This document shows, one piece after another, positions 1,130-45,649 of a DNA stretch of 64,000 nucleotides. The stretch comes from Escherichia coli. GTDB taxonomy: Bacteria > Pseudomonadota > Gammaproteobacteria > Enterobacterales > Enterobacteriaceae. The notes beneath the pieces were generated by a model. That model ran no database searches. It saw nothing but the letters and a program-made list of their open reading frames with translations, and had not been told where the DNA came from. The stretch lies in NCBI RefSeq assembly GCF_024298765.1, contig NZ_CP101210.1; one strand, given 5' to 3'. The number at the start of each line of letters is the position of its first letter. Positions within the stretch are counted from its first letter, which is position 1. A program made the translations under genes and the position numbers.

Positions 1130-1205
1130 GGCCCTTTAGCTCAGTGGTGAGAGCGAGCGACTCATAATCGCCAGGTCGCTGGTTCAAATCCAGCAAGGGC
1201 CACCA
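1130..1205 (+). tRNA. tRNA with anticodon CAU (ileX/ileZ-like; Ile2-lysidine or Met)
   Basis: 76 nt, cloverleaf with CTCATAA anticodon loop, GGTTCAAATCC T-arm, CCA end; close to E. coli ileX from memory. Confidence 0.8.
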
Positions 1206-1206
1206 A

Positions 1207-1283
1207 CCGTCACCAGTTCATCAGGAAAGAGCGTCAACCCTTTAAGTTGAGTGTGCGAGGTTCGAGTCCCCGGTGGCGGTCCA
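1207..1283 (+). tRNA. tRNA-like gene, non-canonical (anticodon loop CCTTTAA, possibly UUU/Lys; C33 instead of U33)
   Basis: Acceptor stem with one G-U, T-arm GTTCGAGTCC with one A-C mismatch, CCA end; may be a degenerate or pseudo tRNA. Confidence 0.4.
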
Positions 1284-1285
1284 GT

Positions 1286-1361
<76 letters not shown>

Positions 1362-1364
1362 TAT

Positions 1365-1439
<75 letters not shown>

Positions 1440-26814: not shown

Positions 26815-27395
26815 TGGCATTCAGAATGAGTGAACAACCACGGACCATAAAAATTTATAATCTGCTGGTCGGAACTAATGAATTTATTGGTGAAGGTGAC
26901 GCATATATTCCGCCTCATACAGGTCTGCCAGCAAACAGTACCGATATTGCACCACCAGATATTCCTGCTGGCTTTGTGGCTGTTTTCAACAGTGATGAGG
27001 CATCGTGGCATCTCGTTGAAGACCATCGGGGTAAAACGGTTTATGACGTGGCTTCCGGCGACGCGTTATTTATTTCTGAACTCGGTCCGTTACCGGAAAA
27101 TGTTACCTGGTTGTCGCCGGGAGGGGAATATCAGAAGTGGAACGGCACAGCCTGGGTGAAAGATGCAGAAGCAGAAAAACTGTTCCGGATCCGGGAGGCG
27201 GAAGAAACAAAAAACAGCCTGATGCAGGTAGCCAGTGAGCATATTGCGCCGCTTCAGGATGCTGCAGATCTGGAAATTGCAACGGAGGAAGAAACCTCGT
27301 TGCTGGAAGCCTGGAAAAAGTATCGGGTGTTGCTGAACCGTGTTGATACATCAACTGCACCGGATATTGAATGGCCAGTAGCACCTATAGGGTAA
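26814..27395 (+). CDS. tfa: Tail fibre assembly protein Tfa
   Basis: Positional immediately after stf; size 193 aa. Confidence 0.85.
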
Positions 27396-34325: not shown

Positions 34326-35177
34326 TTAACCCGCATAAGCTGCCAGTATTTCCTGCGCCGCCAGTTTACCCAACGCATTCGCTGCGAAAGGACTGTCGCC
34401 GGTGAGAACTTTACGGTCCTTATGTACTCGCCCGGTGATGTCGTCATTAATAATGTTCATGCCCATTTTCTTCAGCTCTTCGCCGAAGTACCAGGTGAGA
34501 TGACCCGGCATATAGCCTATCTCTGGCGTTTGTTTGTCTGCGGCGTCTGGGAATGCGCAAATGGAATAACCATTCAGTGGGTTATCGCCGTGGCGAAGCG
34601 CCAGAAAAGCCGACGGGCCGTGGCAAAGGGAGATAACAAAACGGTCATTTTTGATTGCCCACTGCAAAGCAGCAGCCACGTCCTGGCTTTCTGGTAAACC
34701 AATAAGTGCGCCATGACCACCAGGAACAAAGATTGCTGCATATTCGCTGTCTGCGTTGAGGCTGACGACAACATCCGCGAGTTTTTTCGGATTGCGGAAC
34801 AACGATTTATGCTGCTCAAAGAATGGCATTACTTTTTCATCTTTGTGCGGCATAGCCCAGTATTCAAACTTGGTCATCAGACCGGAAATGGTCGCCACTT
34901 CGAATTCGAAACCTGCAGCATGGAGATGATACAACGGCAGCAACGTTTCAATCGGATGGTTACCGGTCGAGAACAGTTTTCCGTTATCGGTCGGCAAATA
35001 ACGTTCGTCCGCGGCGATCACCAGAATTTTATGTTTACCGCGATACGGTTTTGGATAGTCCACGCCATCAAGATCAGAGACAGGACTGGTATATTGGCTA
35101 AGCGAATATTCTGAAGGGAAGAATGCATTATCTTCAGCAATATCGACCTGCGGATTTTTACTTGTTTGAACAGTCAT
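34326..35177 (-). CDS. hchA: Hsp31 glyoxalase/chaperone HchA
   Basis: 283 aa DJ-1/PfpI family; matches HchA. Confidence 0.95.
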   Translation of the reverse strand: MTVQTSKNPQVDIAEDNAFFPSEYSLSQYTSPVSDLDGVDYPKPYRGKHKILVIAADERYLPTDNGKLFSTGNHPIETLLPLYHLHAAGFEFEVATISGLMTKFEYWAMPHKDEKVMPFFEQHKSLFRNPKKLADVVVSLNADSEYAAIFVPGGHGALIGLPESQDVAAALQWAIKNDRFVISLCHGPSAFLALRHGDNPLNGYSICAFPDAADKQTPEIGYMPGHLTWYFGEELKKMGMNIINDDITGRVHKDRKVLTGDSPFAANALGKLAAQEILAAYAG

Positions 35178-35768: not shown

Positions 35769-36827
35769 TTAGAACTGGTAGACGATACCAAATGCGAGTT
35801 GGTCGTCGGTGTTCAGTCCATGAGCGAGAACATAATCACTCTTATCAAGCAGGTTGATCTGATAAGCGGTATATACGTTCATGTTCTTATTGAAGTAATA
35901 CCAGGTACCGATTTCAATGTAGTTCAGACGATCAGAATCTTTGTAACCTGCTACGTCCAGTGCTTTAGAATAGGAGTAACCGATGGATGGACGCAGACCG
36001 AAGTCGAACTGATATTGCAGAACAGCTTCGAAGTTTTGTGTTTTGTTCACAACATCACCGTCGTCGGAATTCATGTTGTGAGATTCACCGTACATCACAG
36101 CAGCATAGACGTTGTTGGGATCATATTTTGTTGACAGTGCCCAAACTTCTGCTTTTTCACCTTTACTATCACTAGACTGGAAATCAGTACGGTCAGAGTT
36201 TGCGTAAGCACCAGTAAATGAGAAACCGTCAATAGTGTAAGTTACAGATAAACCATGGCCATCGCCATTTGCTTTGTAGTTGCCTGTACCTTCATTTTTA
36301 CCCTGATATTGCAGAGCAAAATTTAGACCTTCAACCATGCCAAAGAAATCTGTGTTACGATAGGTTGCAACACCGTTGGTACGGTTGGTCATGAACAGGT
36401 CAGTACCAGCCCATGAATCACCGCCCCACTCAACAAACATATCAGTAAATGCTTCTGCATCATACGCGACACCGACATTACGACCATAGTCGAATGAACC
36501 AAAATCTTTGTAACTCAAACCAGCATAAGCCAAACGAGTTTGGTCAGGGTTGTGTCTGTTTGATGCTTCCAGGTCTAGTTCAAACTGACCGTAACCAGTC
36601 AATTCAGGGTTGATCTGAGTTTCACCTTTCACGCCTACACGGGCATAAGAGGTATCTTGAGAATTATCGCCTTTTTCACCATTTTCACGGTCGGTCAGAA
36701 TGCGCTCACCAACCATCTTGCCGTACAGATCCAGTTTATTGCCATCTTTATTATAAATTTCAGCCGCATTTGCTGCGCCAGCAACTAATAACGCCGGGAC
36801 CAGCATTGCCAGAACTTTTCTTTTCAT
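35769..36827 (-). CDS. yedS: OmpC-family general porin (yedS locus), apparently intact 352 aa
   Basis: Signal peptide MKRKVLAMLVPALLVAGAANA; C-terminal F; porin motifs. Confidence 0.85.
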   Translation of the reverse strand: MKRKVLAMLVPALLVAGAANAAEIYNKDGNKLDLYGKMVGERILTDRENGEKGDNSQDTSYARVGVKGETQINPELTGYGQFELDLEASNRHNPDQTRLAYAGLSYKDFGSFDYGRNVGVAYDAEAFTDMFVEWGGDSWAGTDLFMTNRTNGVATYRNTDFFGMVEGLNFALQYQGKNEGTGNYKANGDGHGLSVTYTIDGFSFTGAYANSDRTDFQSSDSKGEKAEVWALSTKYDPNNVYAAVMYGESHNMNSDDGDVVNKTQNFEAVLQYQFDFGLRPSIGYSYSKALDVAGYKDSDRLNYIEIGTWYYFNKNMNVYTAYQINLLDKSDYVLAHGLNTDDQLAFGIVYQF

Positions 36828-37135
36828 TATGTATTCCCTTGTGATTATAATCTTCATGAATATATCAATAAGTGCCGTTATCCAAAAAAAGCACATTTGG
36901 ATACTATTCTATGAAGTTCATTTTATTTTAAAGATTACATGCAACAAATATATTTAAAAGATTTCAAAATGTTTCTAATCTATTTAATATAATTCAGAAT
37001 TATGAATTCTAAACATAAGTATTCATGAAAATTATCAATTCATATCAATATATTATGAGTTTAGCGGAAAGATAGGGGGTATCAATGATTGATGCGCTAA
37101 ACGGCTGGTGTGATCACGCGCACATTAATGAAGGC

Positions 37136-37235
37136 ATAAAAAAGCCGGCATCATGCCGGCCCAAAAAATATAAACAAGACGATAAAAGGCTAATAACGGA
37201 GGCATCATGACACAGAAAAATAAAAAGGTATAATT
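37136..37235 (-). ncRNA. Candidate small RNA in yedS-yedR intergenic region (possibly RseX)
   Basis: Minus-strand hairpin GCCGGCATGATGCCGGC followed by TTTTT; CCUCC anti-SD-like stretch upstream; RseX location recalled, sequence not verified. Confidence 0.3.
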
Positions 37236-37558
37236 GTATTCAGTGCTAATATATTGATTAAATGAATTAATAAAGCCGATATCAAAGATAAATAAAATCG
37301 CTCAAAACGATTTTTCCTGTATTCACTGCCGTTGCGCAAAATTTATCTATTTTTTCAAAAAATGATTGAGTCTTGACTGGCTCATTCAATGTGGAAAAAT
37401 GTGACTTTTATCACATAATAGTACTAAGTCTGAATTTTCCGGGTTATCTCAAAATGGAATACGGTTCGACAAAGATGGAAGAGAGGCTCTCTCGCAGCCC
37501 TGGTGGCAAACTGGCTTTGTGAGCTTTCTATACATGGTGTGGCTATTTCGTCTGGGCA

Positions 37559-37756
37559 ATGGCGCGTTACATCTGGGTGATGAGCCGGATCCCCGATGCC
37601 CCCGTGTCGGGATTTGAAAGCGATTTAGGCTCTACCGCGGGAAAGTGGTTAGGGGCACTGGTCGGATTTTTATTTATGGCTCTGGTCGGGGCATTGTTAG
37701 GCAGCATTGCCTGGTACACCCGACCTCGTCCCGCACGTAGCAGACGCTATGAATAA
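37559..37756 (+). CDS. yedR: Small inner-membrane protein (yedR-like)
   Basis: Hydrophobic helix GALVGFLFMALVGALLGSIAWY; K-12 position; start site uncertain. Confidence 0.6.
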   Translation: MARYIWVMSRIPDAPVSGFESDLGSTAGKWLGALVGFLFMALVGALLGSIAWYTRPRPARSRRYE

Positions 37757-45562: not shown

Positions 45563-45649
45563 AACACATCAGATTTCCTGGTGTAACGAATTTTTTAAGT
45601 GCTTCTTGCTTAAGCAAGTTTCATCCCGACCCCCTCAGGGTCGGGATTT
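45563..45649 (+). ncRNA. dsrA: DsrA small regulatory RNA
   Basis: Sequence AACACATCAGATTTCCTGGTGTAACG...CCCGACCCCCTCAGGGTCGGGATTT matches DsrA as recalled, including terminator. Confidence 0.9.

Follow-up and report, generated by a model that had tools for sequence, protein, structure and literature searches.

Introduction

RseX of Escherichia coli K-12 came to light as an RNA that, in multicopy, suppresses the essentiality of RseP. According to a later report, it needs Hfq to repress ompA and ompC (PMC8313858, citing Douchin 2006), and fimB and ihfB are further repressed targets (PMC8313858). In that report, 5' RACE identifies RseX as a primary transcript, Northern blots fail to detect it in wild-type K-12 and reveal an RNA of ~91 nt together with a form of ~75 nt in hns mutants, and RNA-seq of hns mutants finds RseX "and surrounding areas" up; the RseX-ompA binding site is described there by the authors as not mapped (PMC8313858). 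The curated record of K-12 MG1655 lists rseX as b4603 (2033649..2033739, 91 nt) on the strand of yedS, flanked by drpB (as yedR is now called) and by a yedS pseudogene, with hchA beyond.

Like MicA, MicC, MicF, RybB and OmrA/B, RseX is a short trans-acting RNA with a Rho-independent terminator whose target omp mRNAs are repressed through pairing at the ribosome-binding site or close to it, and it has the targets ompA (MicA) and ompC (MicC, RybB) in common with them (PMC1804206, PMC8313858). It differs from these porin regulators in lying outside the sigma-E regulon, as judged by Salmonella tests (PMC1804206), in being silenced by H-NS and undetectable in the wild type, and in its distribution, which in our exact-core scan covered Escherichia and one Citrobacter species and which is variable within E. 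coli. Consistent with the latter, rseX has been classed as a variable sRNA that was lost in several lineages (PMC3318445). With SgrS and RyhB, RseX shares the Hfq-binding module, i.e. a moderate GC hairpin, a preceding U-rich stretch (UAUAUUUUUU) and a following U-tail. In the genes of Hfq-binding sRNAs this tail usually counts at least seven T, and with shortened poly(U) tails Hfq binding and target repression are lost, the former as demonstrated at 4 U (PMC5558911, PMC4509938).

Identity and genomic position of rseX

The window analysed here is a stretch of 64,000 nucleotides of E. coli contig NZ_CP101210.1. Scanning the whole window with Rfam returned an RF01401 match on the minus strand at 37226..37137 (96.9 bits, the gathering score being 50; E = 4.6e-12), which spans model positions 1-94 of 94 and is thus untruncated. 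Alignment with the K-12 b4603 region gave a mean column identity of 97% over 225 columns. With the bounds drawn from the equivalent of the K-12 start at 2033649 to the final T of the terminator tail, the gene occupies 37138..37226 (minus strand, 89 nt). It shares locus, strand and start with b4603, belongs to the same length class and has the same terminator hairpin and 21-nt core. The RNAs align end to end with 2 substitutions in 89 nt (nt 9 is U here and A in K-12; nt 26 is C here and U in K-12) and with a T-run that is 2 shorter (6 vs 8).

The gene order was checked by tblastn with DrpB, YedS, HchA and YedJ. Reversed relative to K-12, the window holds hchA (34326..35177, minus strand), yedS (minus strand), rseX, drpB (plus strand), yedJ and dcm. 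On the combined evidence of K-12 annotation, alignment and tblastn, rseX lies at its orthologous position, between drpB and yedS on the yedS strand.

These results bear out the original prediction that RseX is encoded between yedR and yedS on the minus strand and ends at an intrinsic terminator: RF01401 and the K-12 record agree with it, and the interval to which it had been assigned (37136-37235) contains the entire gene. Of the checks proposed at the time, the Rfam scan gave a full-length match on the minus strand, and the alignment placed the annotated rseX neither elsewhere nor on the opposite strand. The accompanying statement that no ORF lies upstream holds as well, in that just mechanical ORFs touch the interval.

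The segment 37226..37138 on the minus strand is therefore rseX, an already described E. coli sRNA gene and nothing fundamentally new. For its Hfq dependence, its targets and its silencing by H-NS we draw on the literature on the K-12 allele. We assign a probability of about 0.95 to the reading that the locus is an rseX sRNA gene silenced by H-NS, with its own weak sigma-70 promoter and the terminator GCCGGCAUGAUGCCGGC-U6, and that its RNA pairs with ompA and ompC. PGAP annotation is blank at this place in the listed E. coli genomes (no feature among the 25 matches listed), and the curated K-12 record alone marks rseX; naming the gene thus fills an annotation gap. Beyond correct annotation its importance is small. 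For those working on RseX, nt 29-49 as a likely seed, a polymorphic CCUCC loop and a conserved candidate promoter running divergently over the 5' end may be of use.

The minus strand of the window reads GGGCCGGCATGATGCCGGC, then TTTTTT, then A. The perfect hairpin GCCGGCAUGAUGCCGGC with its T-run, on which the original prediction was built, is found in its place, the T-run being TTTTTT at 37143..37138. The hairpin (37144..37160, minus strand) appears in the sequence, in the terminator scan and in the fold as GCCGGCA-UGA-UGCCGGC, with a perfect 7-bp stem and a 3-nt loop; in the terminator scan the stem lengthens to 9 pairs (6 GC; 37162..37142). With a GC-rich stem of 7-9 bp and a loop of 3 nt, it has the makeup of a Rho-independent terminator. 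The number of terminator-like sites (1 found vs 0.8 expected in shuffles) is by itself not beyond chance, unlike the match to the Rfam covariance model (E = 4.6e-12). Across 11 sequences the terminator pairs were kept to 100%, with 1 compensatory change from G-C to A-U in C. amalonaticus.

Conservation and structure of the RNA

We aligned eleven rseX copies and, for ten lineages, the whole drpB-porin intergenic region (626 nt). Conservation of the RNA is sharply modular. Invariant columns make up 36% of nt 1-11, 92% of nt 12-23, 17% of the hairpin loop (nt 24-29), 100% of nt 30-49, 14% of the U-rich linker (nt 50-64), where indels also occur, and 70% of terminator and tail. The linker (UUGUUUAUAUUUUUU; 37163..37177, minus strand) runs ahead of the terminator and is variable, with indels. 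The invariant 21-nt block CGUUAUUAGCCUUUUAUCGUC (RNA nt 29-49; 37178..37198, minus strand) is the longest invariant run of the 626-nt intergenic alignment, from C. amalonaticus to E. coli. It is also largely single-stranded: the minimum-free-energy fold leaves nt 39-49 unpaired, and the centroid fold the whole block, as would be expected of a seed, the role that we propose for it from the alignment and the predicted pairings.

The 5' hairpin of the Rfam model (nt 14-38; 37189..37213, minus strand), with a 5-bp stem AUGAU/GUUAU and 2 outer pairs, is seen in the Rfam structure and in the minimum-free-energy fold. Covariation in this hairpin was sought in the 11 sequences and none was found; the sole pair that varies is disrupted in 2 of the 11 without compensation. 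The RNA as a whole folds no better than shuffled sequences (z-score -1.41).

The loop of this hairpin holds the CCUCC stretch (RNA nt 25-29; 37198..37202, minus strand) which the original prediction had singled out as resembling an anti-Shine-Dalgarno sequence. The stretch is indeed there (37202..37198), but the role suggested for it did not hold up, as it is a variable loop allele outside the conserved element. CCUCC is created by the C at nt 26, where K-12 has U. Counted with 35-mers centred on the variant, the CCUCC allele was present in 1275 and the CUUCC allele in 1916 of ~4900 E. coli carriers; K-12 and O157 have CUUCC, and other lineages ACCCC, ACUCC, ACCGC, UUAC and so on. Judged from this alignment and these counts, CCUCC is one allele of the six most variable bases of the RNA and not a conserved functional element.

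Predicted pairing with ompA and ompC

Duplexes were predicted by a windowed, accessibility-corrected search, using ompA and ompC sequences from K-12 and not from the window strain. An unrestricted RNAduplex run of RseX against its targets had told nothing, since it paired the RNAs over their full length, and the windowed search took its place. For ompA, RseX nt 37-50 are predicted to form 13 bp with -21..-7, interrupted by one bulge, and for ompC, nt 30-44 to form 14 bp with -15..+1, each at a hybridisation energy of -16.6 kcal/mol. Both predicted duplexes cover the Shine-Dalgarno sequence and lie almost wholly inside the invariant block (nt 30-50); the conserved stretch expected to lie across the targets' Shine-Dalgarno sequences is the pyrimidine-rich GCCUUUU inside nt 29-49. 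The C at nt 26 opens alternative predicted registers, in which CCUC faces GAGG of the target (nt 25-43 with ompC, nt 20-40 with ompA). The registers differ by 1-2 kcal/mol, and which of them is preferred shifts with the length of target supplied.

As background we used 54 unrelated initiation regions of the window (mean -6.9, sd 2.5, minimum -11.8 kcal/mol). The value for ompA (-11.9 kcal/mol) barely beats the best of them, and that for ompC (-9.2 kcal/mol) is unremarkable. Energy-based target prediction thus discriminates weakly, and with energies so near the background the argument for a seed rests on conservation and on the published genetics, not on energies. On those grounds the invariant nt 29-49 are the likely seed covering the Shine-Dalgarno sequences of ompA and ompC.

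A course of events that would fit these data and the K-12 literature is as follows. The gene would be transcribed from its own weak sigma-70 promoter, within a very AT-rich intergenic region silenced by H-NS, and the transcript would end at the GCCGGCAUGAUGCCGGC-U6 intrinsic terminator. Once expressed, RseX would pair with ompA and ompC mRNAs at their ribosome-binding regions (and, per later work, act on fimB and ihfB), most likely via the invariant single-stranded nt 29-49, and this pairing would block translation and lower the mRNA level.

Candidate promoters and the drpB gene

The GC content of the intergenic region is 29.7%, compared with 50.4% for the window, and falls to 23-25% just downstream of rseX, which fits silencing by H-NS. 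For rseX, the sequence offers a putative, properly spaced -10 element TACAAT at positions -12..-7 (37233..37238, minus strand), which by lineage reads TACAAT, TTCAAT, TAAAAT, TACCAT, TACGAT or TACGAA. With a 17-nt spacer, a weak and poorly conserved -35 candidate, TTAATC (37256..37261, minus strand), can be placed ahead of it. This best -35 matches the consensus in 3 of 6 positions, which is why the rseX promoter was not called in the consensus scan.

On the opposite strand, a candidate sigma-70-like promoter directed toward drpB, ATGACA-16-TATAAT (37207..37234, plus strand; 11/12 matches), overlaps rseX nt 1-20, and its -10 shares 2 bp with the -10 of rseX. Its -35, ATGACA, corresponds to RseX nt 15-20 in reverse complement, and these lie within the invariant run CTGTGTCAT. 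Of 1000 shuffles of the intergenic region, 6.8% contained a site as good. All Escherichia copies retain both hexamers and the 16-nt spacer, which are conserved more strictly than the -10 of rseX; in C. amalonaticus the drpB-facing -10 is poor (AACATT) and the complement of the -35 is retained. This arrangement suggests a bidirectional rseX/drpB promoter, and the opposite-strand promoter may explain the invariance of nt 12-20. In the Cappable-seq supplement, no start site for either promoter was present at the K-12 coordinates searched.

A different account of the locus follows from the same observations, namely that the conserved 5' part (nt 12-20 and the start region) is promoter DNA of drpB, with rseX as one arm and the drpB mRNA as the main product. 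The near-consensus match, its retention beyond that of the rseX -10 in all Escherichia copies and the position of its -35 opposite an invariant run of the RNA all speak for such a promoter, so that we consider this account possible, if on balance we would not choose it. The invariant block at nt 29-49 and the conserved terminator lie outside the promoter and are left unexplained by it, the -10 is poor in C. amalonaticus, and the Cappable-seq supplement has no start-site entry at the coordinates searched. Moreover, a promoter for drpB would complement the sRNA gene and not replace it.

In the window, drpB (formerly yedR; 37454..37756, plus strand), the divergent upstream neighbour, has a stop at codon 23 in its translation. 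This codon is Trp in K-12, and in AR_452, whose locus is identical, the gene is annotated with 'internal stop'. Together with the drpB frameshift of O157:H7, the stop at codon 23 indicates that drpB decays repeatedly.

Distribution and the short U-tail

Of 5426 complete E. coli genomes, 4898 carry one copy each of a 201-nt region containing the gene, and 528 (~10%) lack it. A single scan across species, which required an exact match to the core, retrieved six genomes, representing E. coli, E. albertii, E. whittamii, two further Escherichia species and Citrobacter amalonaticus. All six carry a full-length rseX by Rfam (70.9-95.2 bits) and a porin gene downstream of it, and drpB lies upstream wherever the locus reaches far enough; that of E. 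coli E69 ends just upstream of rseX, with drpB outside it. In an E. coli isolate derived from EC0026B (NZ_OX460316.1, 2552-3322), IS1A replaces rseX, yedS and the 5' part of hchA. This IS1-associated deletion in a lab-evolved strain indicates that the locus is dispensable.

The T-run of the window allele (37138..37143, minus strand), with 6 T, is the shortest of the 11 copies compared, the remaining ten having 7-8 T, and 135 of 5426 E. coli genomes share the exact 6-T context. The window rseX thereby departs from the module that it otherwise shares with SgrS and RyhB: it falls below the at least 7 T of Hfq-dependent sRNA genes, a typical feature and not an absolute requirement. Since the run is below the usual seven or more, Hfq binding may be weakened.

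The gene could accordingly be rseX by descent and yet be weakened or decaying in this strain, with a 6-T tail that binds Hfq poorly and, given silencing by H-NS, little or no activity. A tail shorter than in the ten other copies and rare among genomes would fit this, as would the loss of binding reported for shortened tails (PMC5558911, PMC4509938), the variable occurrence of rseX (PMC3318445; 528 of 5426 genomes without it), its deletion in the laboratory and the pseudogene state of the neighbouring drpB. However, it was with 4 U, not 6, that Hfq binding was shown to be lost, and this allele has an intact seed, terminator stem and -10, all three the same as in the functional K-12 gene. As 135 genomes have the 6-T context, it is neither a sequencing error nor a very recent lesion. 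We therefore regard a largely inactive allele as unlikely, and infer that the rseX gene of the window is functional.

More specific than the rseX reading itself is the proposition that nt 29-49 form the ompA/ompC seed, that a promoter shared with drpB couples silencing to drpB expression and that 6 U weaken the allele, all at once; in this combination it is tentative and rather doubtful. If true, it would be of modest interest, and to sRNA specialists only.

The downstream porin gene

The downstream neighbour of rseX is an intact yedS-type porin gene (35769..36827, minus strand; 352 aa), recognised by its ORF, by tblastn and by the annotation of the identical AR_452 locus, where it is named 'porin'. 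yedS is a pseudogene in K-12 and O157 and intact in the window. Compared with the porins that other Escherichia lineages carry at this locus, YedS of the window reaches only 53-64% identity, whereas the porin leader from -30 to +12 and the distance of 310-312 nt from the rseX terminator are fixed across Escherichia. From these comparisons, yedS is a hypervariable coding region behind a frozen regulatory region. Between 40 and 110 nt upstream of the porin start lies a conserved block (36868-36937, minus strand; 82% invariant columns), which includes a 17-nt invariant run, ATAGAATAGTATCCAAA (36912..36896). This block probably serves as the yedS promoter or as a site where a regulator binds.

The constant arrangement raises the question of whether rseX is a leader or attenuator of the porin gene, acting by read-through into yedS or by pairing with it. 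Both genes stand in tandem on one strand in every lineage, with 310-312 nt between them in Escherichia and 316 nt in Citrobacter; read-through of sRNA terminators amounts to 20-50% (PMC4509938), and the areas surrounding RseX were up along with it in the hns-mutant RNA-seq (PMC8313858). Against a leader stand the discrete ~91-nt species on Northern blots and the 5' RACE result indicating a primary transcript (same source), as well as the promoter-like sites and the highly conserved 110-nt block directly upstream of the porin gene. Pairing of RseX with the initiation region of its own porin was considered and rejected, being at background level in each lineage (-5.0 to -7.6 kcal/mol vs -6.9 +/- 2.5). 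A role as porin leader thus seems improbable to us, and a separate sRNA gene with its own terminator remains the preferred reading.

A small protein in place of an RNA regulator, for which one could invoke the AUG-AUG at RNA nt 19 that opens a 27-codon frame, or a 44-aa TTG ORF (37205..37339) that overlaps the promoter, was rejected and deserves practically no credence, because the U-rich linker differs between strains by 1-nt indels that break the frame and, as the frame continues through the terminator, the transcript would have no stop codon; in addition, the sequence has no Shine-Dalgarno-like purine run ahead of the AUG, and the codons following this AUG fall in the hypervariable loop.

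Other features of the window

Four tRNA genes lie at 1130-1439 (plus strand), in the order Met-CAT, Lys-TTT, Thr-TGT and Gly-TCC and with gaps of 1-3 nt; ARAGORN called all four and Rfam three of them. The cluster may be borne by a phage or an island. The Rfam scan also matched DsrA at 45563-45649 (plus strand, 102.5 bits) and IS009 at 27157-27355 (plus strand, 226.1 bits).
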